A model generated the notes under the pieces. That model was not told the origin of the DNA and ran no database searches. It saw only the letters and a program-made list of their open reading frames with translations. This document shows, piece by piece, positions 35,004-59,763 of a stretch of DNA of 64,000 nt. Position 1 is the stretch's first letter. Every line of letters starts with the position of its first letter. Source of the stretch: Moniliella sp. 'wahieum' (Eukaryota); NCBI GenBank assembly GCA_003971905.1, contig RSEE01000008.1, positions 310,001-374,000 of the forward strand, given 5' to 3'. The position numbers and the translations under genes are program-made.

Positions 35004-35790
35004 ATGTGGAAGCCGGGCAAGCTCAACGACGTGGTAAAGCGCACGCCGCTCAAGTGGCACCTCCTCGTCATCAGCTTTGTTACTGGCCTTTTGGACGCGA
35101 CGACGTATGGAGACTTGCAACTGTTCGCATCCAACCAAACCGGGAACACCATCATCCTCTTTGTCCTTCTCTTGGGTAAAAAGCCAGGCGAGTATTCCAA
35201 CTATCCTGACCTCCTGCCCACGGGTATCTCCCTTGCCACATTTCTCGTCATGGGATTTCTCTGGGGGCGAGCAGGACTGCGCGCTGGACCTAGAAAGAAG
35301 TGGTGGCAAATGTTTTCGTTGTTGTTTCAAGCGGGAATGCTTCTTCTTCTTGCCATTCTGCTCGATACCAACGTGATCCGCCCGGGTCTGCGAGTGGGCC
35401 ATGGGGAGGCGGAGAAACGACGCGGCATTGGCATGCTTGTTGGCTGCACCATCAGGCGCACAAGTAGCCCTCGCCCGGTCCTCCGGCATCTCCGAAATTC
35501 CAACAGCAATGCTCACCTCTCCCTACATTGACTTTTTTGTCGACCCCAATCTCTGGTCGCATCCTTGGAAGGTGGAGGATCCCAAGATCAAAACGCGCAA
35601 TACCCGTGCTCTTTATCTCATGTGCATCATTTCTGGCTCGGTTGTGGGCGCCTTGATTCATCGTCACGCCGCTTCCTCTTCGGCAGCGCTGTACCTGGCA
35701 TTTTCCCTGCGTCTCTTGGGTGCAATCGCGACATTGTTCTTCCCCACCTACCCTCCCGAGGCTTACTCGATTGACAAGACCAGCCCCTAG
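35004..35790 (+). CDS. DUF1275 / YoaK-like multi-pass membrane protein (frameshift near 35420)
   Basis: SFVTGLLDATTY....FASNQTGNTII, GAQVALAR..G.SEIPTAMLT, several hydrophobic helices. Confidence 0.82.
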
Positions 35791-38700
35791 TACTCATTCC
35801 TTTTCTGTAATAATGCCATCCCTTTGATCGTGTAATTGTTCAAGACATGGGATGGGATGGAACTTCCTCTCCTCTGCATGCAAATATCTATACTGTAACC
35901 ATATCATTGACGGAGTTTAAGGCCACGACAAAGTAACGCTGGTGCCTCTATACCCATCCGTTCATCCGGCGTGTGTTGCTTGGTAGAGCCAACCCCGTTT
36001 TTTTAAAACCAGGGGGATCGCCAGGAGATCACGACCCTCTGGTGTCCGCCATCCCTTCCCATCCCCGAGGTAGCACGTGTGGATACGGATGAACGCGGGG
36101 GGGTCAAAGAAGGATCTCCTTGGCATAATTTTCCATTGCCCTGATGGCTTCACGGCATCTTAGTAGTATGCCAACGCACACACACGAGTATTAGTTGAGG
36201 CTCGGTCCCCCTTTTGGTGCGTTGCTTCATCCATTCCTTCCTAGAGGACTGGAATATTCGCTAGCCTCGTCACGTGCGCCATATAACAATACACCATCAA
36301 CTGTGTCTCCTCTTTGATGGCCTTGTCCAACCATCACGGTGCCTCCATTTAGTGTGCCAAATCTGATGATCGGACAGTCAAAACAACCCATACATCTCTT
36401 CCAGCAACTGACAGTAGGTAGCAATAAACAAAAGACCCCGTCTGTCACGGGGACACGATTAAGTCGTCTTGCACAGCCGCCTCCACTCCTTCATCCGCGC
36501 TCTCGCTTCTCGGCTTCTCTCCCTTTCACTACTCAGGTTTTCTATCTTTCGCTATCGCGACTCGGGATTCTCGGCCTATATACAAAACCCACAACAATCG
36601 TCTTGCTACCCTCGGGCTCGTCTAAAATTCAACACACTGCTCATGGTTTTGAGTCTGTTTCTCGCCTCGTTTCGGGTCTCGGGTCCGCTGTGCCTTTGAC
36701 CCTCGTCTCGTCTTTCACCTCGTGCATGCCGTGCATGGTTCTCCCTTCTTCCCTTTGACTCATTTCCCCTTTTTCGCTGTAGACGTGTTGGTCATTCCTT
36801 TGTTCCCCTGCTCTATTCTATAAAAACCTGTGCCTATTCTTAGATCCAATTGGGATGGCCAACAAGCCACCCACACCATTATTTCCCCTCACCTTTCTTC
36901 TAGGCACTCTCCACTCTTGAACGACCAACGTTTGATCAGCTCGCTTGCCCTTCTTCGCCCATCGGAGCTCCTCGCTTTCTCGCCCGCCCCCCAAGGTGTA
37001 ACATCCTTTGCAGACGCTGCCTGGCTCTGCCCGAGACTTCATTCATACCCGGCGAGAGAGTCGAGCACGGTATTCATCGAGTTCAACCTTCAACGTTCGA
37101 TCATAATATCGAGTTCTCTGCGTTCAGACATTCGATGTCATTTTGGCCACAACTGTCGTATGTTATAGGGGTGGAGAGGGGGATGCGGCAATAGAAGAGA
37201 TGAGCGCCAATATCTTATCCTTGGGAAGTAGAACCACAAAAGAGTTACTATGGGACCTGACAGGGAAAGGGGGGGTGGCTGTGAAGAAGCCTTTGCAATA
37301 TAACCAAAGTGAGGGAAGAGAGGCAAGACGCAAGCGTCCCCCTCGTTTTTCTCACTGGCTCCACCAGCGTCAGCCACAACTAGGCTTGCCACATAGCACT
37401 GCCCCCGTGCGCCTGTGGCACAGGACCCCTAAGCCAGCACCCATCATGCATCATGCATCACGGCGTCAGCTTGCAGATGTGCAGATCGCTCGCTACTGGA
37501 AGCTCTACGGTGGATCCGCTTTCAACTTTCAAATGCCAGAGCGAGCGCGAGCCAGCGAAGCAGAGGACCCGTAGCATTGGCTGTTCACATGCATCACATG
37601 TCACACGAGGCACCACAGAACCACACCTGTGACACGCGCACTGAAGATCGAGCACGCGCCACACTCCAGCTTCAAGCTTCAAGCTTCTCAAGGTCGCATC
37701 AGCCGCCGGCGGACCTCAGTGGTTCTCAGCCTTTGTTGGCTCTGCCGTCTCGGACGGATAGATGGGAAGGAAAACGAGGCTACGAAAGGGCATTGTGGGT
37801 GGGCGGGGGGGGGGTATAACCACACATGTCGGACGAATGGAGATTGTGCCGAGATGAGAGTAGCGGTTGCCGTTCGTTAAAAGCTATGGTTCTTGACCAG
37901 TGCCAGCCAAATACCAGCGTTAACGCGTTGCTCGGCTGGGAAGCCGGCGGGGTGGAGAGAGGGCAGCCTGATGGCAGCAAGGCGCAGCAGCGCCGGTCCA
38001 GAGCGAGGCGCGGCACGCACGTGAGCCGGCGGGCCAGCGGAGGCCACAGGGCAGCGAGTGGAGGAAAACACGGGGGCAGTCTGGGGGACTCGCCCAATCG
38101 TCAGCGCAGGGAGAGCGTGCACAGCACGAAGCACGCACCTGTCCCCAAACAGAGCGAGAGTTGGGCGTGCTGGAAGCTGGACCCAGCGCTGCCACCGCCC
38201 TGCGTGGATTTGCACCAGCGTGGAGACACGCTGGGCGGGAGTGGCGCCGTGCCCCCGGGGCTCCGATCGACGCGGCGCCGGGGGCTTGGGCGTGGGCTGG
38301 CACAGTGCCAGTCACCCGAACAACGGCGGCATCGCAGCGCCCCGCTGGCACCAGGCGCGTGTGGCCAGGGCAGCGCCGGGCAGCGGCAGTAGGCAGGCGC
38401 ACGCAGCCAGCCAAACACTCCCCCGTGCGCGTGGAAACAGTGGCGCGCGCGCCCGCCGCGAGCGAGGGTGGCGTGGTGCCGCTCTCTCGCCCTGGGCACG
38501 GGGGCAGCCTGGAGCCGCCTGCGACGGCCTGCAGGGGGCGACGCGACGCGTGATGGGATGGGCAGGCTGGGGTGTGATGCATGCATGATGCTGCCAGGGT
38601 TGGCTGCCCCCACCGGCCACGCAGAGGAGCACCGCAGCGCACGCCGACGAACCGACGGCGGGACTCGGGGCGTCCTGCGTCCCCCACCCCCCCCACCACC

Positions 38701-38797
38701 CTCTTCTCGGCCGCCGCCCCCTCCGCTCCTCTTCCGCCGCTGCTGCGCTGGGCGAGCCTGCGTTCGTTTCTTCTCTCGTTCGCTCTCGTCGCCCACC

Positions 38798-41700
38798 ATG
38801 TCCGACTGGCCCCTCGAGTTCATACCGCCTCCCGCCCCGCGCGCCCGCCACGCCGCTCGGCGACTGGATGGCCCAGAACGTCACGACAATGGCACGGCCA
38901 CCACCCTGCTCGACTGTCTCTGCTCCACCACACGCCCCGCCCTCTGGAGCCCGGACCTCTCCCGCCGCCCCTCGACCACCGCAGCATCAAGCAGTTCGTC
39001 CAATCCTTCACCCTCCCAGTCCTCCGCGCCCGCAGCAACCCACTGCGACCCAACGACCGTGTCATGCTGCTCTCCTGCCGGCCCTGAGAATGCCCTGATG
39101 CTTATGTCCATTGCCACCTACCATACTTGTGCCCCGCTCAACGCCGCCTGCACTGCCGGCGAGTTGCGTGACGATGCCGTTCGCCTCCGCGCCCGCGCCG
39201 TCGTCACAACCCGCGACAGTCTGGAACGCCTTGGCTGCTACGAGCTCTACGAAGAGGAAAACATGGAGATCATCGTTGTCGACTTCAAAACATCCGGCCC
39301 GGCAGGTTACTTTGACATAGCGGTACTCGAAGGCGAAGATCTTGTCCCATACCAGCACGGTTCTCAGCGCCCATGCCCGCCCTCAACCCTGACCGACTAT
39401 TCCCTTGTTCTTCATACCTCTGGCACGTCGGGCAAAAAGAAGGTGGTGCCCTACTCTCTGCGCCACATGATCGTGGGTACCTGCTGTGTCGTCTTCTCCT
39501 GGGAACTCAAACCCGATTCGGTGAACAGTATGTCCCTGCTTTCCTCTCGTACTTTCGAACTGACAACACACACTAACTTGGTGCTTCTCAGTGAACATGA
39601 TGCCTCTTTTCCATGTTGGCGGTATTGTGCGGAACCTTTGGTCTCCCCTCTTCTCCAATGGGTCCGCCATTATGTGTGCTGGATTCGACGCGACGACCTG
39701 GTGGAAGCTTGCTGGTCAACTGGGAGCGACGTGGTACTACGCTGCCCCTACCATGCACCACGCTATCCTGGCCTCCAAACCCGAGGGGACAGTTGCTTCG
39801 CGGGACACTAAGATCAAAATGATCTGCAATGCCGCTGGTGGCCTGCCCCTTGGCTGTACAGCTCAAGGAAAACTTTGGTGACTGTGCTGTACTCCCCTCG
39901 TACGGCATGACAGAATGGTGCGCGAGACTCCCTCTCTCCTCCCATTTGCGATATGTACTGACCTATGGATTTTTCGCGTTGGCAGCATGCCCATTGCCTC
40001 ACCCCCACCGACTACCAGCTAGACCGTCCTGGTTGCTCTGGGGTGGCCTGCGGCCCTGGCCTTTCCATCCGTGATCCGTTCAACCTTGAAAAGGAGCAGC
40101 CCACCGGACAGACAGGTGCCGTATGCGTCCGTGGTCTGCCCACTTTCAGCGGTTACGAGACCGATCCCGATGGTCCTCTGGATGCCTCCTCTTTTTCTTC
40201 GGAAGGCTGGTTCGACTCGGGTGACATGGGCCACTGGACGCGGATGGCTATTTGTTCATCACGGGTAGGTCCAAGGAGATCATCAATAAAGGTGGTGAGG
40301 TTATCTCCCCGTTTGAGGTCGAAGAAGCCGTCACGCAAGCGACCACGGGCCGTGTCAAGAACACTCTCTGTTTCTCGATCGAGACGACGTGCTCCAGGAG
40401 ACAATTGGTGTGGTGATCGTCCCCACGCCAAATGAACCCCGGGTAGGGCTGTCGGAGCTGCAGAACATGCTGCGGAACTATCTCCACCCATCCAAGTGGC
40501 CGTTTGCGATTGTCTACATGGACGACCTTCCAAAAAACCAAGCAGGGAAACCCTTGCGTATCAAGCTCGCCAGCCGTCTGGGGATTGGGCCGCTGACCGA
40601 TAGTGTGCCCCCGCTGCAGCGCCACTTTGAGGCGAAGGCACCTGGGAAGGAGGTGCCATTGCTGAGCCAATCCCCTGCCAACTGGTGAATGTGGATCTGC
40701 GGGCAGTCGAGCGCGCCTGCTACCGGATCCCTGGTATTGTCGAGGCGGCAGTTCGCATGCGCAAGGATGGTGCCCCCGAGGCCTTCCTCTATGTCGAGGA
40801 AGACATGCCATATGATGCTGCAGACATCGACCGTGCACTGGCTCAGGTGCTGGACGGCTACGTGGTACCCAATCCATTGCACGTTTTCCGTCAGCCCTTG
40901 GCCAAGACCGCCCAGGGCCAAATTGACTTTAATACCATGGAGGCCGAAGTGCGCGCCCAGAACGCTCAGGACATGTCCGCACGGGCATTATTGTTCGCGA
41001 CATTATTGGCAAGCTGCTCAACACGGATCCTGGCAGCATCACAGCCGAATCCGACTTCTTCCTACTGGGCGGCAACTCTCTCTTGCTGGGCCGTCTGGTG
41101 GCGCAGATTCGGAAAGAAACAGGCGTGTCGCTCGAGGTTTCGTCTCTGTTTACAAACTCAACCATCTCGGCTATCGCGGATATGATTGAAGAGGAGACGG
41201 GAGGCTCGGATGCAGAAGATGAAGACGAGGGCTACTACGATGAGAAGACGGGCTTTAGCTCCAACTTCCTCTCGGCTCATCGCTACGACGATGAAGAAGA
41301 CGGCTACCTCAACTCGCACGGGTATAAGCCCCGGTCCCAGACTCATCCGTGGGTGATGCTGGTCCAGATCATCCCGCTGCTCTTTTTCTACCCGTTCAAG
41401 GCCGCTGGACCTGGACCGTGCTCCTTCACGGTCTTGCCTTCTCGGCGTATTACATCAACGACAACTTTTGGGAGCGTGTGGGTGTCCTGCTTCTCTCCCT
41501 CTTTATCGCCCGTCTCACTTCCCGAATCATCTGCCCGGTCACCGCCATTGCCTTCAAGTGGCTTGTCATTGGCCGTTACCGCCCCGGAAAGTACCCAATG
41601 TGGTGCAACTACCATCTGCGCTGGTGGATTGTCAACCAATCTCTCACCACGGCCGGTAAGGGTCTTTTCAATCTGACCCCCGAACTGCGCAAGGTATACT

Positions 41701-43880
41701 TCCGTCTTTTGGGCGCATCGATTGGCAAGAACGTCAAGATTGACAAGTTTGCCAAGTTGGGCGAATATGATCTTCTTACGATCCACGATGGTGTGCAGAT
41801 TGACAAGTCTGTCGTCCGCGGTTTCTGCGTCGAACGTGACGGTTACTTCCGTCTGGAACCCATCATCATCGGGCGCGACTGCATGGTCAACACCTACACT
41901 CAGATTTCTCCTGGCGCTCGCTTGGCCAACGGCACGGTTTGGGGTCCCCAATCCAGTAGTCATGAGGAGCCGTCGATGGACAGCTATGCCGCATACAATC
42001 GCGAGGCAGTGCCTAAGCCGCATTGGTCCTTGATTGTCTTCCTTGGTCTGCCGCTTAAACTGGTGGTCTGGGTGCTGTGCTACCTCCCTTGGTTTTCAGC
42101 CTTGTTCATGCTGCTCTCGACGCCGTTTTTGTTCAACAAGCACGATTCGCTCAAAGGCGTCGTGGCATGGTTCTCCTTCCCTGACCGGATTGGCTGGCAC
42201 TACCTAGCCCGCATTGTGCGCAATGGCATGCCGGCCATGTCCAATGTGATCCTCGGTATCCTTCTTAAGCGCATCTCGGGCCTCAACAAAGAAGGCTCGA
42301 TGAGGAACGCGACCCAACTCTCGCTTTGGCGCCGTTGGGTGCAATCCGAGTTCCTTTCCCAGCCCCAGATTCGCCGGTCGATGTCCATCTTGGGCACTCA
42401 CTACGAGATGACCTCGGTTATTTACCGTGCGATGGGGGCCAAAATTGGCAAACGCGTCTACTGGCCGGGATCGGGGATCTACTGCCCCGACCCCGAGTTG
42501 CTGGAGATTGGGGACGATGTGGTGTTTGGGTCGCGTTCGGAGGTCTTTACCTCGGACTCGATTGGATGGGCCAAGGTACGCGTCGCTCGCGGCGCTATGA
42601 TTGCCGACCGTGTGGTGCTCTCTCCCGGTGTGACGGTGGGGAAGCAGTGTGTGATGGGTTCCGGTGCGTTGGCGCGCAGGAACGGGTACTATGAGCCGCT
42701 GTCGGTCTGGATGGGTGCCAAGCACGGTGAAGCGGTTAGTTTTGGCAAGTCGGCGCCGTCTGAGGAAATGGGGGAGGATTCAACCATCACGCCATTTGGC
42801 CGTGCGTTTTACAAGCGCCAGGCCAACTTCTTTGTGTTCCCCTACCCTATGCTCGTGTGCATCAACATTCTGATGAGCGTCATTACCTCGCTCTACTGGG
42901 CTTCGCCTGCCGTTGCGGCCATTACTTTCCTCAACTTCCTCAGGATTCACTTTGAGGACAAGGCCGACGGTCTGTTTGGCGACCACTGGTACCGCCCTGC
43001 CCTGGTGTACATTTACATTGCTCTTGCCTTTGTCATCATCATGGGGGCCCAGATGATTATTGCAATGGGTTGGGTGGTCGGGACGAAGTGGGCGATTATT
43101 GGCCGGCGGCGCGAAGGACGGTACGATTGGGACAAGTCGTCGTATTGCCAGCGCTGGCAGCTTCACCTCGTGCTGCAGAAACTGCTGGGCAAGGGCTTTG
43201 GCGGTCACATTATCGGGTGCATTTCTGGCACGGTGTACGCAGTCTGGTACCTGCGCGCTTTGGGCGGTCACGTGGGCAAAGACTGCTCGATTTGGGCCGG
43301 TGGCAAGCCCTCGCTTCAGTTTACCGAGCCGGAGCTGGTTACGTTTGGGGATCGGGTCAGCGTGGACGACTGCTCGGTGTGGCTCACATCAACTCACGCG
43401 GACGCTTTTCCCTCAACGCGCTCCGGATTGGAGACGGGTGCGCGATGCGTACCGGTTCGCGCCTGCTCTCTGGCGCCAACATGGAGCCCCGTAGCATGCT
43501 GCTGGAGCACACCCTGGTCGCGTCCGGTGAGATTGCGGAGGCGGGGATGGTGTATGCGGGTTTGGCCTGCTCGTCAGCTACGGGTGCGCAAGCCCAAACC
43601 AACCGCCCCATCGGCTTCAGCGCCCACCGTTGTTGTGGAAGGCGGGCCTAGCAAGAGCTTTGGTCTGTCGCCGATGCCGTCGACCTTGCCTTCGATGAAT
43701 GCTAGTCCGTATGCTTCCAAAGATGCATTTAGCTCGCAAGATGCATTTGCTCCCATGTCGGCACCTCCTCTTCCCTATGGGCACCAGCCTACCACCTCCT
43801 ACAATGGCTCTTTGGCGGATTCTTACGGCCACGGGGGGTACCAATACCAAACGCCCATGCAACCCCATTCGGCATTTTAG
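38798..43880 (+). CDS. Membrane-bound NRPS-like enzyme: acyl-CoA-ligase-type A domain, carrier (T) domain and three Pls/PosA-type TM+LbH terminal repeats; 2 introns, several frameshifts
   Basis: [56 protein letters not shown] domain [10 protein letters not shown] (Ser codon 41077..41079). Repeats [52 protein letters not shown]. Introns 39528..39591 and 39918..39985. Confidence 0.88.
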
Positions 43881-48641: not shown

Positions 48642-50856
48642 ATGCTCGACCACGTTGCTGTCGTCCTCGATGGTACGTAAGATGCACACCATGCCATCCG
48701 CGTCTCTGCAGCGAACTAACCCCTTGACCCAGGCGGGCTCGAGCTCTGGTCTCGCTCTTTCGCCTTCGCCGCTGCCCCCAAGAGGCGGTGGCGGTGGTGA
48801 ACCAGCTGGTGCGGGAAGTGTTTATCGAGGAACGCACTTCCGCTCCCCTGTCTTCCTCTTCGTCCGACCGTGTGGGCCGCTTTGAGGCAGGCCCCTTTGT
48901 GGCGCGTTATCTCCAGGTCAACACGCTGGCCAAGCCACTGCTCTTTGTTGCCGTGCACCAGCGCATGCTTCCGCTCTCCTATGTCGACGCCCTGATGCAT
49001 GACTGGGCCGCGGAGTTTACCCCCTTGGTCCGCGATTTTGTCACCGCCTTCTCCAGGTAGGCACACCTTCTGGATTGGACAAGGCTACTTCTGCCCTTGA
49101 TGGTGGTGAGGTGGGGTCGGCCCTCCCGGCAGAGAAGAGGGAGGCACTTGCTTCCCGTTTGGACGCCGGGGTCCCAAAATTCACTGCGTTGGTCCGGAAA
49201 CACGAACGTTCCTCTCACTCTACCTCAGGGCGAGGCGGTGCTCTCTCTGTGCCCGAGAGCACCGGGGGCACGTCCGTCTCGGGCGAGTCGGACGTGGATA
49301 CGTCCCAAGTTGAGGCCAAACCCCTTACTGCTGAAGAGAAGAAGGAGGCTGCGCTGGCCGCTGTGAGGGCACGTTTGGCCGCATCGGGTTCAGGGAAAAA
49401 AGGGAAAAAGTCGAATGGCTCTCCCGTGTCCTCAGGCGCCAACTCTCCTACCCCGGACAAACAAGGCAAGAAGAAAAAGGGAAAAGGAAAGGAGATGCGC
49501 AAGTGGGATGCCGATGGCCGCTCCGTGGCTGTCAACCAGGACGATTCGGCATTGGATTTCTCTACCTCTTCCGCTAAGGACCCGGAGGCTTCGCAAGCTA
49601 TGGCGGCCGCATTGGTGGATAAGGCGTCGATGGGCCGGACCGACGCCAATGGAATGTACGAGGTGGCTGACTTTGAGGTGAAGGGTAAAGGTGCCTCGAA
49701 ATCGGGATGGATGTCCAAGCTCTCTGCAGGGGGTGGGTCCAATGGTGGAATCCTCTCCCGGCTAAGTGGGGGAGGCGCTGGGACACTCACCAAGGAAGAC
49801 TTGGCCCCAGCTTTGCAAGCTATGCAACAGCAACTCCAGTCCAAGAACGTGGCGGCGGATGTAGCAGCTCGTCTGTGCTCTGGTGCTGAGGCTCGCCTGG
49901 TGGGGCGCCCACGCTCCTCCTGGTGGTCTACTGACGGTGGCGCTGAGAAGATGGTTCGCAACGCCCTGTCCGACTCGATCGCCCGCGTCTTGACTCCTCG
50001 CACTTCAACTGATGTGCTAGCTGAGATCTCGGCTCGTAGGACGGCTCAAGAAGTCAAGGCAGCTGTCGACGCATCTCGTTCGGCCAAAGGTGGAGCCTCC
50101 CAAGTTCATCGTCCTTACACCATTGCTTTTGTGGGGGTAAATGGTGTGGGTAAGTCAACGAACTTGTCCAAGGTCGCGTTTTGGTTGCTGCAGAACCAGC
50201 TTCGTGTGCTCGTCGCGGCTTGCGATACGTTCCGTGCTGGTGCTGTGGAGCAGTTGCGTGTCCATGTCCGCAACCTGGGACAACTCCATGATTCCTCTAC
50301 AGGGGGTGTGACCTCGGTCACTAATGCCGATGGGGCTGAGTCGAGCGAGGGCAAGGACATTGCTCTTTTTGAGGCTGGATATGGGCGGGACGCCGCAGCC
50401 TTGGCTGGGCAAGCGATCGCTGCGGGGGAGAAGGGCGGGTATGACGTGGTGCTTATCGATACGGCCGGACGGATGCAAGACAACGAACCTCTGATGCGCG
50501 CCCTGGCACGGCTGGTCCAGGTAAATAACCCGGATAAGATTCTCTTTGTGGGAGAAGCCTTGACGGGCAACGAAGCGGTCGACCAACTGTCGCGCTTTGA
50601 TGGAGCCCTCAAAGACCTCGGGGGGCGTGGGCTAGATGGGATGATTCTGACCAAGTTCGACACGAGTACGTCTTTTTCTTTGTTTGGCTGTATGGTCTAC
50701 TGACCTTCACTGCTAGTTGACGACAAGGTGGGCGCTACATTGACTGCGACGGCGATTACGGGCTTGCCCATCTATTTCGTCGGTACAGGACAGACATACA
50801 CCGACCTGCGTCAACTGAGGGTAAACGCAATTGTCGACGCTCTGATGCGCGATTGA
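48642..50856 (+). CDS. SRP101: Signal recognition particle receptor alpha subunit
   Basis: MLDH exon, VNQLVREVFIEER longin part, KEMRKWD, FVGVNGVGKSTNLSKVAFWL, ACDTFRAGAVEQL, DTAGRMQD, TKFDT|..DDKVG, GTGQTYTDL. Confidence 0.95.
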
Positions 50857-52468: not shown

Positions 52469-54118
52469 ATGGCCCTCGCTCGCAACGCACGCATGACCCA
52501 GATTGAGTGGCTTGCTGGCCTCAACCCCCTCGGTCTGGAGGAGTCCGCGGCCAACCCCAACCAGCGCAAGACTGCCATTGTCTGCACCATTGGCCCCAAG
52601 AGCAACAACGTGCCCACCCTCAAGGCCCTCCGCGATGCAGGCATGAACGTTGTCCGCCTCAACGCCTCGCACGGCACTCACGAGTACTTCCAATCGGTCA
52701 TTGACAACGCGCGCGAGGTTGATGCCAAGTACCCTGGCCGCCCCCTGGCCATTGCGCTCGACACCAAGGGCCCCGAGATGCGCACCGGCATGATGGTCAA
52801 CGGCGAGGACGCCCCCATCGAGGCTGGCCATGTCTTCTACGTTACCACTGACGATGCATACGCCGAGAAGTCAAGCCCCGAATACCTCTACATTGACTAC
52901 AAGAACCTGCCCCAGAAGATCGACGTGGGCAAGAAGATTTTCATTGACGATGGTATTCTTGCGCTTGAGGTGTTGGCGATTGAGTCGTCTACCATGGTCA
53001 AGGTTCGCTCGGTGAACGCCGGTGTCCTTTCGAACAAGAAGGGTGTCAACCTTCCCATGACGGAGATTGACCTCCCCGCTCTGTCGGCCAAAGACGAGGC
53101 CGACATTCGCTTCGCCGTTGCGCAGAACCTGGATTACGTCTTTGCGTCTTTCATTCGCACCCCCGAAGACGTCAAGCACATCCGCAAGGTCCTTGGCGAG
53201 GATGGCGCTCACATCAAAATTATTTCCAAGATCGAGTCTCACCAGGGTGTTCAGAACTTCACTGACATTCTTAAGGAGACTGACGGCATCATGGTCGCTC
53301 GTGGTGATCTTGGTATTGAAATCCCGGCCGAGGCTGTGGCTGTGAGCCAGGTGCGTCTCTCCTTTCCTAACTCACGCACTTCATGCTGACTCCCTGTTTC
53401 CGCCCACTAGAAAATGATGATTGCCCAGTGCAACCTGGCCGGAAAGCCGGTTATCTGCGCCACCCAGATGCTCGAGTCTATGATCAAGAACAACCGCCCC
53501 ACTCGTGCCGAGGTGTCGGATGTGTTCAATGCCGTGCTCGATGGCGCTGACTGTGTCATGCTTTCCGGTGAGACGGCCAAGGGTCTGTACCCCGTGGAAG
53601 CAGTCACCACCATGGCCCAGACCTCTCGCCTGGCCGAGTCGGCGATTGCCTACCCCGCCCTCTTCAACGAAATGCGCCAGGTGGTTCAGACGCCGACCCA
53701 CACCGAGGAGACGGTCGCCATGGCTGCCGTGGCTGCCTCGCTGGAGCAGAACGCTGGTGCGATCCTGCTCATGTCCACCTCGGGTAACACTGCCCGTCTT
53801 GTGGCCAAGTACCGGCCGAAGTGCCCTGTGCTCGTTATTACCCGTAACGAGCAGACCGTTCGTGCTTGCCATCTGTACCGCGGCACCTACCCCTTCCTCT
53901 ACGCCGACACGCGCCCCTCAGCAGGCAAGTGGCAACAGGACGTGGACAACCGCATCAAGTTCGGCTTTGCCCAGGCTCTTGAGCTTGGTATCCTCAAGCC
54001 TGGTGCCACCGTCGTTGCCCTCCAGGGTTGGCGTGCGGGCAAGGGTGCGACCAACTCGATGCGCATCCTCTCCGTCCCCACCCACGAGTCGGGGCTCGAG
54101 CTCGAGGCGGCACACTAA
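52469..54118 (+). CDS. CDC19: Pyruvate kinase
   Basis: [41 protein letters not shown]. Intron 53351..53410, then [34 protein letters not shown]. Confidence 0.98.
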
Positions 54119-58654: not shown

Positions 58655-59763
58655 ATGGCAGCTCCCGCATCGCCCTTCCCGGACCTCCATACGCCTGGCT
58701 CTGCCCTGGAGAGCCTCTTGCTGAGCAGCTCCATCTTCCGCCCCAGTCTGACCGCCTGAACGCGGACGAGGGTGCAAACGCTCCCTATGGGTTCTTCACC
58801 CCGGTCATCGAAGCCGCCGGGCGTCTGCACGCGGCCCGCAAGCACCTCGACTTGCCCAACCCAGGCTCCGTTGAACACCTCCAGCGCGAGGTCAAGGCTA
58901 CGCACCTGACCAACCACTCTTTGACGGCGCACGCGCTGACTTGACCAAGGTGTTTTCCGTTAACCCTGTCTTCCAAGTTACCCATGCCTTCCATGCCCAA
59001 CGCCCCCAACCCGCCGAGCTACAACTTTGGCGCGGTCTTGGGTGACAGCCGCCACTTCCTTCAGGGTGGCGTTGATGATTCGGGTTCGGTAACTATGCGC
59101 GCGAACCGTGGCTGGGGCTTTGGTCACATTTCCAAGATCCAGGCCCAGCTGGTAAGCGGCTCAGGGTCGTTTGTGCAACTCGAGCACGACTACCAAGGCT
59201 CGGACCACAACCTGAATCTCAAGGCGCTCAACCCTTCGATCAACAATGGCACCGGTTTTCATGGGAAGCTACCTGCAATCCCTTACCCGCAACTTTGCCT
59301 TTGGCTTGGGACCGTCGTACAACGGCCTTCGCCTGAAGTCCAGGAGGCCACTACGGGCTACCACGCCAAGCTCACTGGTGACAGAAAGGACAGGAACTGG
59401 ATTGCTACCGTTTCGGCCCAAGGAATGGGGGTGCAAGCCTCCTATTGGCAGAAACTTGCGGAACGGGTGGATGTGGCGGCGGACTTGTTGCTGCTTGCAG
59501 TGGGCCCCAAGCGCGAAGGCGACGGCAACTCTCGGTGCAAGGGGACTTCCACATGTCCACCCTCGGACCCAGATTGACTCGACTGGCAAGCTCGCGACCC
59601 AAATCGAACAGCGTCTTGCCCCCACCTTCTCCTTCACCGTGGGCGGAGAGATTGACCCATGCAAGGGCGCCTCGCGCTTTTTGGTGTGGGTCTTAACATT
59701 GAGTCGGGTACCGAGATTGACCCGACCACTGTGCCGCCGACCCCCCCTTCGCTCCCGCTATAA
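58655..59763 (+). CDS. TOM40: Mitochondrial import channel Tom40 (many frameshifts)
   Basis: LDLPNPGSVEHLQREVK, YNFGA, LQGGVD, QLEHDYQG, GSYLQSLT, ASYWQKL, QIDSTGK, FTVGGEID spread over several frames. Confidence 0.9.

Follow-up and report, generated by a model that had tools for sequence, protein, structure and literature searches.

A probable orthologue of the fungal polymalate synthetase family in Moniliella sp. 'wahieum'

A single gene on the forward strand of the window, a 64,000-nucleotide stretch of contig RSEE01000008.1 from Moniliella sp. 'wahieum', encodes an adenylation (A) domain and a carrier domain, followed by three membrane-flanked, left-handed beta-helix domains. The gene is best read, with moderate confidence, as a Ustilaginomycotina orthologue of the fungal polymalate synthetase (PMAS) family that is probably intact, and whose product would load a carboxylic acid, likely L-malate, and polymerise it through ester bonds at the membrane. 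The initial annotation had flagged this architecture as possible new chemistry for which no product had been characterised. That claim does not stand, as the architecture already has a studied member, the polymalate synthetase of Aureobasidium that reviews describe as reported in 2020. The more general proposal that a non-amino carboxylic acid is polymerised at the membrane survives as the best reading of the gene.

Gene model and domain organisation

The coordinates of the gene and its features are collected in Table 1. Both limits of the gene, as first annotated, were borne out, as were the frameshifts, with the differences that two real introns are present and that the frame is broken 11 times rather than a few. 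When read through, the gene yields 1654 residues, including 11 X and no in-frame stops, and this read-through aligns with the 1597-aa Violaceomyces protein P0004 over residues 2-1572 at 75% identity. The A part and the carrier and terminal parts belong to one gene, as evidenced by five named Ustilaginomycotina gene models of 1564-1598 aa that each hold all of the domains, and by a close relative (P0002) in which a single unbroken ORF of 1294 aa runs from exon 3 to the stop codon.

Table 1. Positions of the gene and its features in the window
Feature	Position	Strand	Basis or remark
Whole gene	38798..43880	+	ATG at 38798, TAG at 43878-43880; three exons, two introns
Intron 1	39528..39591	+	64 nt, GTATGT...CTCAG, phase 1; orthologue alignment continues across it
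Intron 2	39918..39985	+	68 nt, GTGCGC...GGCAG, directly 3' of the SYGMTE motif; orthologue alignment continues across it
A domain, large N-terminal part	39049..40234	+	PF00501 in orthologues; best PDB matches oxalyl-CoA synthetases
A3, TSGTSGKKK	39416-39442	+	Within large A part
A4, MPLFHVGG	39600-39623	+	Within large A part
10-residue motif	39729-39758	+	Cited in initial annotation; present
A5, SYGMTE	39898-39915	+	Within large A part
A7, GWFDSGDMG	40205-40231	+	Within large A part
A domain, small C-terminal subdomain	40243..40565	+	PF13193 in orthologues
A8, 12-residue motif	40264-40299	+	Within small C-terminal A-subdomain
A10 lysine, in 10-residue motif	40530-40559	+	Within small C-terminal A-subdomain
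Putative second, degenerate copy of the A-domain C-terminal subdomain	40664..40984	+	Lacks the A10 lysine (...AQGQID)
Carrier (thiolation) domain	40993..41199	+	PF00550, 60.9 bits, on piece 40987-41403
Phosphopantetheine-attachment serine, in 10-residue motif	41053-41082	+	Within carrier domain
First pair of hydrophobic (predicted transmembrane) segments	41353..41555	+	Kyte-Doolittle peak for second segment only; first from sequence and orthologue continuity
C1, first left-handed beta-helix-type tandem domain	41556..42014	+	NCBIfam matches, WcaF-like and TIGR02353; homologous to C2 and C3 by hhalign
Second hydrophobic stretch, 40 residues	42018..42137	+	Read as transmembrane helix pair; Kyte-Doolittle peaks 2.2-2.4
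C2, second tandem domain, with Hexapep match	42234..42818	+	PF00132, 44.7 bits; hhalign
Third pair of hydrophobic (predicted transmembrane) segments	42828..43070	+	Kyte-Doolittle peaks 2.1 and 2.4
C3, third tandem domain	43086..43561	+	hhalign to C1 99.8%, to C2 98.9%; split by break at 43380-81
11-residue repeat motifs	41556-41588 and 43086-43118	+	Cited in initial annotation; present
Beta-helix repeat motifs LGASIGK, MGAKIGK, LGGHVGK	41709, 42432, 43260	+	
C-terminal tail rich in Ser, Pro and Tyr	43563..43877	+	Ends ...HSAF
Frame breaks, 11 of 1-2 nt	38966..43562 (span)	+	tblastn frame jumps without an orthologue gap; direct three-frame reading
Frame breaks, first six	38966-67, 39073, 39849, 40005-06, 40235-36, 40384-85	+	
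Frame breaks, last five	40662-63, 40985-86, 41404-05, 43380-81, 43562	+	

All of the motifs named in the initial annotation are present, and in frames supported by orthologues. The Pfam families AMP-binding, AMP-binding_C, PP-binding and Hexapep are found in the orthologues, and the last two also in pieces of the window's own sequence (scores in Table 1). The second A-subdomain is proposed with weak to moderate confidence; its match to PF13193 (18.5 bits, E 0.0039) covers positions 2-75 of the 76 in the profile but falls under the gathering score, and it aligns by hhalign with the first subdomain (94.5%, E 7.5e-8).

The C-terminus has the layout of epsilon-poly-lysine synthetases (Pls/PosA), as had been suggested, with TIGR02353 (Pls/PosA) as its top family (144-209 bits), hydropathy peaks on the flanks of each repeat by the Kyte-Doolittle scale, and C1, C2 and C3 that are mutually homologous by hhalign (99.5%, 99.8% and 98.9%). 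In published descriptions of Pls/PosA enzymes (PMC7179176, PMC10522769), the A and T domains come before six transmembrane helices, arranged as three pairs, and the three tandem domains C1-C3 have been modelled as beta-helices of the left-handed kind; the window protein likewise has three tandem C domains parted by transmembrane helix pairs. It was nonetheless rejected as a Pls/PosA equivalog, because its C-terminus scores 144 bits on TIGR02353 (179 bits for the orthologue P0005) against a curated cut-off of 423.1 bits, and because the alpha-amino-binding Asp of NRPS A domains is absent, the A4 motif reading FHVGG and not FDxS. In addition, the A domain is of an acyl-CoA-ligase type, an extra degenerate A-subdomain is carried, and the bond expected of the window enzyme would be an ester rather than an isopeptide. 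The window protein is presumably about 300 residues longer than Pls.

Relationship to polymalate synthetase

In the case of the black yeast Aureobasidium melanogenum, PMAS is described as consisting of A-like, T and C-like domains with six transmembrane regions, encoded by a gene of 5049 bp whose deletion is reported to affect polymalate (PMA) production (PMC11905612, PMC9210645, PMC11286673). According to the reviews, in which the protein (QHD40385.1) is attributed to Wang et al. 2020, the enzyme has not been isolated and complementation gave back only a third of production; in these sources, knowledge of polymalate synthetase is purely genetic and confined to Aureobasidium. The same architecture, in which A-like and carrier domains precede a C-like region that has six transmembrane segments, is found in the window protein and in a cluster of Aureobasidium proteins of 1685-1690 aa (P0372 and P0410). 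This cluster likely corresponds to the published PMAS, given its architecture, length and genus, and the core gene with A and PP-binding domains that is described for A. pullulans. The window protein aligns with the cluster over its full length at 39-40% identity (for A. melanogenum P0410, 1610 aligned positions, 40% identity and 1101 bits), and both give the same NCBIfam profile below cut-off, a FadD7-like A domain and TIGR02353. About 60% of residues differ between them, and the hosts are an ascomycete in the one case and a basidiomycete in the other. No enrichment of the Crz1 motifs reported for the PMAS promoter was seen upstream of the window gene, where one was found in 1.5 kb, compared with 0.9 per kb across the window.

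In a tree of 60 rows, built with FastTree alone and with the window protein entered as its first read-through version, the window protein nests within Ustilaginomycotina. A basidiomycete clade (22 rows, support 100) and an ascomycete clade that includes Aureobasidium (23 rows, support 100) are sisters, and their joint node has a support of 99; this arrangement is consistent with vertical descent. The family is pan-fungal (Dikarya, chytrids and Mucoromycota), and is also found in other protists and in at least one Myxococcota MAG.

In the acyl pocket, the nine positions homologous to His214 and the oxalate pocket of AtAAE3 read HVGAAGMPK in the window protein, identical at 9/9 positions to P0372 and P0410, and to 243 of the 286 family rows examined, although these positions are defined for oxalate and a C4 substrate would contact additional residues. 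This identity, together with conservation of the full-length architecture, including the second A-subdomain, argues against a basidiomycete branch of the same family that uses a different monomer or acceptor, producing another polyester or making a single acyl transfer to a membrane or cell-wall acceptor. Such a divergence is unlikely, but would be in keeping with the long basidiomycete stem branch (0.6), which suggests that function may have changed, and with a literature search in which no basidiomycete was found to be reported as a source of polymalate. Likewise, retention of the family even in Malassezia, whose genome is very small, hints at a housekeeping surface role, and Agaricales copies carry extra RING-finger Pfam matches.

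It can also be proposed, tentatively, that PMAS-type enzymes make up a large lineage, so far undescribed as a unit, whose sister group is formed by the cationic poly-amino-acid synthetases; a near-invariant pocket and a second A-subdomain without the catalytic lysine would mark this lineage. If so, basidiomycetes including Malassezia and mushroom-forming fungi would make an undetected polymalate-like or other hydroxy-acid polyester at the cell surface. The spread of orthologues suggests that polymalate, a biodegradable polymer of biomedical interest, or a close relative of it, may be much commoner than reported. Orthologues for which the same pocket is predicted, both among basidiomycetes and in much more distant groups, would represent new sources for biochemical and structural work. 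In databases the gene is labelled 'acetyl-CoA synthetase-like', 'oxalate--CoA ligase' or 'NRPS-like', and the present reading provides a testable function for a gene so labelled. Some records name family members 'Oxalate--CoA ligase' or 'peroxisomal-coenzyme A synthetase', names that are automatic transfers.

State of the reading frame

Along the coding sequence, which is about 4.96 kb long, the 11 frame breaks are unevenly spaced, with nine inside 2.4 kb followed by none in 2 kb. Such clustering might be expected of a true pseudogene, in which 11 small indels disable the gene in the window strain and no product is made, as might the lack of any frame break in the Pfam matches of four neighbouring genes (pyruvate kinase, homoserine dehydrogenase, PRPP synthetase and Aha1). 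However, all of the breaks are of 1-2 nt, the read-through is free of in-frame stops, and the window protein keeps 261 of the 266 columns with a conservation of 90% or more. Three of the five misses fall at frame breaks, leaving only two substitutions, whereas 11 independent neutral indels should have brought many more. Moreover, two other genes in the window, for a DYRK-type kinase (about position 1455) and a VDAC porin (59490-59560), are likewise broken inside conserved motifs. Loss of the gene is therefore improbable. Given the absence of stops, the conserved columns and the broken kinase and porin genes, the breaks most likely arose as errors in an assembly that is noisy in patches, and thus the organism itself probably has an intact gene. 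For users of this assembly, the implication is that it carries patchy indel errors.

The adenylation domain and a proposed reaction

Comparison with solved structures places the A domain with the oxalate/malonate-CoA ligases and not with amino-acid NRPS A domains, in agreement with the initial annotation. An 85-aa piece around A4, taken from the window itself, has five PDB matches at E<=0.01, four to oxalate-CoA ligases and one to a malonyl-CoA ligase. For the orthologue P0005, the best PDB matches are oxalyl-CoA synthetases (6qjz, 169 bits; 5ie0, 163 bits; 8aff, 141 bits), followed by the malonyl-CoA synthetase 4fuq (124 bits), while amino-acid-type NRPS A domains score about 60 bits; amino-acid adenylation families are absent from the 25 best NCBIfam families listed. 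The closest solved ANL enzymes are thus oxalyl-CoA synthetases of the AAE3/Pcs60 kind (AtAAE3, LsOCS and yeast Pcs60), with which the window protein shares the motifs PLFHV.G, ATWY.A.PT.H and Y.MTE, as well as A8 and A10. It differs from these enzymes in having a carrier domain and a membrane polymerisation region joined to its A domain. An SKL-type signal, typical of the C-terminus of peroxisomal proteins including Pcs60, was looked for at the end of the tail and is absent. The second-best PDB group, malonyl-CoA synthetase MatB (4fuq and 3nyq, 98-124 bits), also acts on a small dicarboxylate, but as a stand-alone CoA ligase.

The structural matches, and the records that name family members 'Oxalate--CoA ligase' or 'peroxisomal-coenzyme A synthetase', might suggest that oxalate itself is loaded, in which case the enzyme would oxalylate an acceptor, since oxalate has no nucleophile for polymerising. 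That substrate is very improbable, because Ser289 and His319 of AtAAE3, described as contacting oxalate and as kept in no enzymes other than oxalyl-CoA synthetases (PMC8905533), correspond to Ala and Pro in the window protein, because His216, Cys288 and Ala313 are Gly, Ala and Gly, and because the likeness to malonyl-CoA synthetases is nearly as strong and the names are automatic transfers. The residue is smaller than in AtAAE3 at four of the nine pocket positions (216, 288, 289 and 313), which, with the change of His319 to Pro, fits a substrate bigger than oxalate.

Judged from sequence, the enzyme most likely activates L-malate, or a hydroxy-dicarboxylate close to it, and then polymerises the acid through ester bonds at the membrane. 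The product of the gene would be a single membrane protein of about 1650 aa, whose A domain is predicted to convert a small hydroxy-dicarboxylic acid, with L-malate the most likely one, into its acyl-AMP. The acyl group would then be passed as a thioester to the enzyme's own phosphopantetheinyl carrier domain, and not to CoA, and the Pls-type C-terminus may form an ester bond between this acyl group and the hydroxyl of a free monomer or of the growing chain. Here, the three left-handed beta-helix domains, each with its membrane helix pair, would probably form a pseudo-trimer on the cytosolic face, with the polyester let go at or through the membrane. In a search for shorter relatives, the best 120 matches were only fragments of the window protein's own family.

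Gene model and frame breaks

Pieces of one long protein are spread over all three forward frames between 38.4 and 43.9 kb of the window, the longest stop-to-stop piece being 41328-43880 (+). Alignment to P0002 (a close relative), P0004 (the Violaceomyces orthologue) and P0005 (another full-length orthologue) gives the gene model in the table. Read through with an X at each break, the product has 1654 residues without a single in-frame stop; it shares 75% identity with Violaceomyces and Thecaphora proteins along almost its entire length, and is 87.5% identical to P0002 over 1301 aligned positions, the whole of that protein.

Features of the gene in window coordinates
Feature	Position	Strand	Basis
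Start codon (ATG)	38798	+	tblastn with P0002, P0004 and P0005, with three-frame junction reading; gene of 5083 nt
Stop codon (TAG)	43878-43880	+	tblastn with P0002, P0004 and P0005, with three-frame junction reading
Intron 1 (GTATGT...CAG, normal fungal splice signals)	39528-39591	+	tblastn and junction reading
Intron 2 (GTGCGC...CAG, normal fungal splice signals)	39918-39985	+	tblastn and junction reading
Frame breaks (11)	38966-67, 39073, 39849, 40005-06, 40235-36, 40384-85, 40662-63, 40985-86, 41404-05, 43380-81, 43562	+	frame shift of 1-2 bases, orthologue alignment ungapped
Second, degenerate A-domain C-terminal subdomain, between A domain and carrier	40664-40984	+	PF13193, 18.5 bits, E 0.0039, below threshold

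The frame breaks are very probably patchy indel noise of the assembly, as judged from the state of the reading frame and of neighbouring genes. In addition to the stop-free read-through, the consensus residue is kept in 261 of the 266 columns conserved at 90% or more among 51 other family members (counted on a first version of the read-through), with three of the five misses falling exactly on break sites, and the ORF of P0002 runs unbroken from exon 3 to the stop. Conserved genes elsewhere in the window are broken likewise. A DYRK-type kinase gene (-) lacks one base inside YRSP|EVILG near 1455 (about 1440-1470), and a VDAC porin gene (+) changes frame by 1 nt within 59490-59560, inside a conserved motif; in each, the Pfam match resumes in a different frame at continuing profile coordinates, leaving no space for an intron, which indicates that the assembly carries indel errors in patches. 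The DUF1275 gene may hold another frame break, at about 35370-35416.

Breaks of this kind could also mark a pseudogene, a reading that draws on their clustering, with nine within 2.4 kb, none over the next 2 kb and then two in 0.2 kb (a pattern that also argues against uniform noise), and on the window's pyruvate kinase, homoserine dehydrogenase, PRPP synthetase and Aha1 genes, where no frame break was seen. Set against the open read-through, the retained conserved columns, the intact relative and the similarly broken kinase and porin genes, however, a pseudogene is improbable, and patchy assembly noise is the preferred reading. That all of the frame changes are introns was rejected, since splice signals and an alignment gap coincide at only two, the other 11 being ungapped in the orthologue. 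Short introns of the ordinary fungal kind in the pyruvate kinase and SRP-receptor alpha genes (53352-53410 and about 50666-50716, +) indicate that real introns in this genome show clear GT...AG signals.

Upstream of the ATG, 37900-38797 is a stretch of about 0.9 kb and about 65% GC with long overlapping ORFs on both strands, and is probably promoter or 5' UTR. The 1.5 kb upstream shows no enrichment of the Crz1 motifs that the promoter of the Aureobasidium polymalate synthetase is reported to carry (1 hit there versus 0.9 per kb window-wide).

Domain organization and the adenylation pocket

The orthologues carry AMP-binding, AMP-binding_C, PP-binding and Hexapep domains (Pfam), of which PP-binding (60.9 bits) and Hexapep (44.7 bits) are matched by the window's own pieces. 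The C-terminal subdomain of the A domain is followed, ahead of the carrier, by a second, degenerate copy of itself, which covers nearly the full PF13193 profile and aligns with the first subdomain in hhalign (94.5%, E 7.5e-8). In this copy the catalytic A10 lysine is replaced; the segment occurs in 51 of the 52 rows of the family.

In the C-terminal region, hydropathy peaks lie at residues about 853-883, 1037-1069, 1303-1334 and 1364-1382, and a further hydrophobic segment without a peak, about 812-846, was assigned by eye from the sequence. Between the hydrophobic segments are three stretches of 150-195 residues each, C1, C2 and C3, whose repetition went undetected in a blastp self-comparison of the C-terminus and emerged from profile comparison on the 52-row family alignment (C1-C2 99.5%, C1-C3 99.8%, C2-C3 98.9%). 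The same layout, three tandem domains with six transmembrane helices in three pairs, is found in the poly-amino-acid synthetases Pls, Epls and PosA; the passages of the PosA paper on this region model the tandem domains as three left-handed beta-helices packed like trimeric sugar-nucleotide acyltransferases, and state that an experimental structure is lacking (PMC7179176, PMC10522769). Among NCBIfam families the C-terminus fits TIGR02353 (Pls/PosA) best; the cut-off of that model is 423 bits, and the window reaches 144 and three family members 179-209, which makes the gene a relative of the Pls/PosA family, not a member. The C-terminal 691 aa, searched against PDB sequences, gave nothing better than E 0.02, the weak matches being small hexapeptide acetyltransferases, and no solved Pls-like C-terminus was found with this query. 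A literature search on Pls structure or fungal Pls homologues returned nothing relevant.

For the A domain, the PDB matches of full-length P0005 are headed by oxalyl-CoA synthetases (6qjz, 169 bits; 5ie0, 163; yeast Pcs60, 8aff, 141), followed by a malonyl-CoA synthetase (124 bits), with amino-acid-type NRPS A domains at about 60 bits. The window's own 85-residue A4 piece matches five PDB sequences at E<=0.01, four oxalate-CoA ligases and one malonyl-CoA ligase; the exon-1 piece (39074-39526) matches none at that threshold. The initial annotation, every quoted motif of which is present in the gene, was therefore right to assign an oxalate/acyl-CoA-ligase type of A domain, and the Pls-like C-terminal layout that it proposed is borne out by the hydropathy and mutual homology of C1-C3. 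When shorter homologues of the A domain were sought, stand-alone Pcs60/AAE3-type ligases were not among the 120 matches listed, all apparently fragments of the gene's own family.

It does not follow from the type of A domain that oxalate is the substrate. The oxalate pocket of the oxalyl-CoA synthetase AtAAE3 is described as Val215-His216, Cys288-Ser289, Ala313-Met314, His319 and Lys500, with Ser289, His319 and Lys500 contacting oxalate, and Ser289 and His319 conserved in oxalyl-CoA synthetases alone (PMC8905533). In pairwise alignments the window counterparts are Val-Gly, Ala-Ala, Gly-Met, Pro and Lys, such that the oxalate-specific Ser289 and His319 are both missing. Of the eight positions, four (216, 288, 289 and 313) hold a smaller residue than in AtAAE3, and a proline stands in place of His319. 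Together with the position of AtAAE3 His214, the pocket positions, as mapped from a two-carbon (C2) ligand, give a nine-residue signature, HVGAAGMPK, which is that of the window, of both Aureobasidium rows and of 243 of 286 rows overall. This common signature predicts that the window enzyme would load whatever the Aureobasidium enzyme loads.

Kinship with polymalate synthetase and a proposed reaction

The initial annotation knew of no characterised product for this architecture, a statement overtaken by the polymalate synthetase (PMAS) of Aureobasidium melanogenum. As outlined in passages of PMC11905612, PMC9210645 and PMC11286673, PMAS was reported by Wang et al. 2020 and is an NRPS-like protein with A-like, T and C-like domains and six transmembrane regions, encoded by a 5049-bp gene. 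Deleting that gene reportedly affects the production of polymalate, and the enzyme itself has, by the same account, never been isolated. The architecture of the window protein is therefore not new. In A. pullulans, a homologous core gene lies within an antiSMASH 'NRPS-like' cluster (A and PP-binding in the figure's domain key), with a separate 'NAPAA' cluster on a different scaffold; the supplement of PMC11905612 gives antiSMASH cluster types, and the core-gene accession is absent from it.

Querying with a Hortaea member of the family brought up a single Aureobasidium cluster (P0372), whose 126 members, A. melanogenum proteins among them, are 1685-1690 aa long. The published PMAS (QHD40385.1) was not seen among the 15 of 126 members listed, so that its identity with this cluster is one we infer, from genus, architecture and length. 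Aligned over 1610 positions, the window protein and the A. melanogenum protein P0410 are 40% identical (1101 bits). In architecture, homology, orthology pattern and pocket the window gene agrees with the PMAS-type family, and it is close to certain that it belongs there.

In the proposed reaction, the A domain would activate L-malate, a small hydroxy-dicarboxylate that suits the enlarged pocket as well as the relationship to ligases of oxalate and malonate. The acyl group would then be loaded onto the enzyme's own carrier serine, in GGNSL, and the pseudo-trimeric beta-helix domains may catalyse attack on the thioester by a hydroxyl of free monomer or chain. This last step mirrors the free-acceptor mechanism reportedly proposed for Pls by Yamanaka et al. 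in 2008. Because a pair of membrane helices separates each domain from the next, A, T and C1-C3 would all lie on the cytosolic side, and the transmembrane helices could provide an exit path for the polymer. As a whole, this reading of malate activation, own-carrier loading and ester polymerisation at the membrane seems reasonably probable from sequence comparison; the chances that polymalate is the actual product in Moniliella sp. 'wahieum' are roughly even. In searches of open-access papers, no report of polymalate from basidiomycetes and no description of the family's breadth or near-invariant pocket was found, and searches pairing polymalate with Ustilago, or Malassezia with NRPS-like, gave nothing relevant.

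Breadth and phylogeny of the family

A search with the C-terminal query P0001 (691 aa) gave 1739 proteins at E<=1e-3 (7540 candidates), led by P0002, an unnamed protein of 1294 aa at 89% identity. Among the best 120 of the 1739, the best named matches come from Ustilaginomycotina and are 1564-1598 aa long, with 71-75% identity in Violaceomyces, Thecaphora, Ceraceosorus, Tilletia and Parajaminaea and about 63-67% in Malassezia; Agaricomycete proteins come next at about 50-56%. By precomputed Pfam annotation the matches have AMP-binding, PP-binding and Hexapep domains, their names are limited to 'acetyl-CoA synthetase-like', 'peroxisomal-coenzyme A synthetase' and 'NRPS-like', and a protein atlas search gave nothing beyond unnamed Hexapep clusters. 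A protein of the fern Adiantum nelumboides (P0033), 73% identical to the window C-terminus, is probably fungal contamination of the plant assembly. Many Agaricales members, especially from Mycena (P0045, P0068-P0074 and others), have additional RING-finger matches (PF00097, PF13923, PF13920, PF13639), suggestive of a fused ubiquitin-ligase-like domain.

In an exhaustive profile-free search with the C-terminus, 2083 sequences, each representing a cluster at 50% identity, matched at E<=1e-3 (278 at E<=1e-30). Of the best 150 representatives, 52 are at least 1150 aa long, and 51 of these also match an HMM of the family's A domain. Among the members with a name are ascomycetes from several classes, chytrids, one mucoromycete, the non-fungal protist Artemidia and a Myxococcota MAG.

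In a FastTree phylogeny of 60 full-length rows (first read-through version, Myxococcota row as root, local supports only), the window protein falls within Ustilaginomycotina. Basidiomycetes form a clade of 22 rows (support 100) whose sister is the 23-row ascomycete clade containing Aureobasidium (support 100), their joint node has a support of 99, and the mucoromycete and other chytrids branch outside it. The basidiomycete stem branch is long (0.6); this notwithstanding, the pattern is that expected for orthologues. The Spizellomycete chytrids Geranomyces and Thoreauomyces (P0377, P0381, P0382), unlike the other chytrids, which lie outside Dikarya, are nested in the Dothideomycete part of the ascomycete clade, a placement that may reflect horizontal transfer or contamination.
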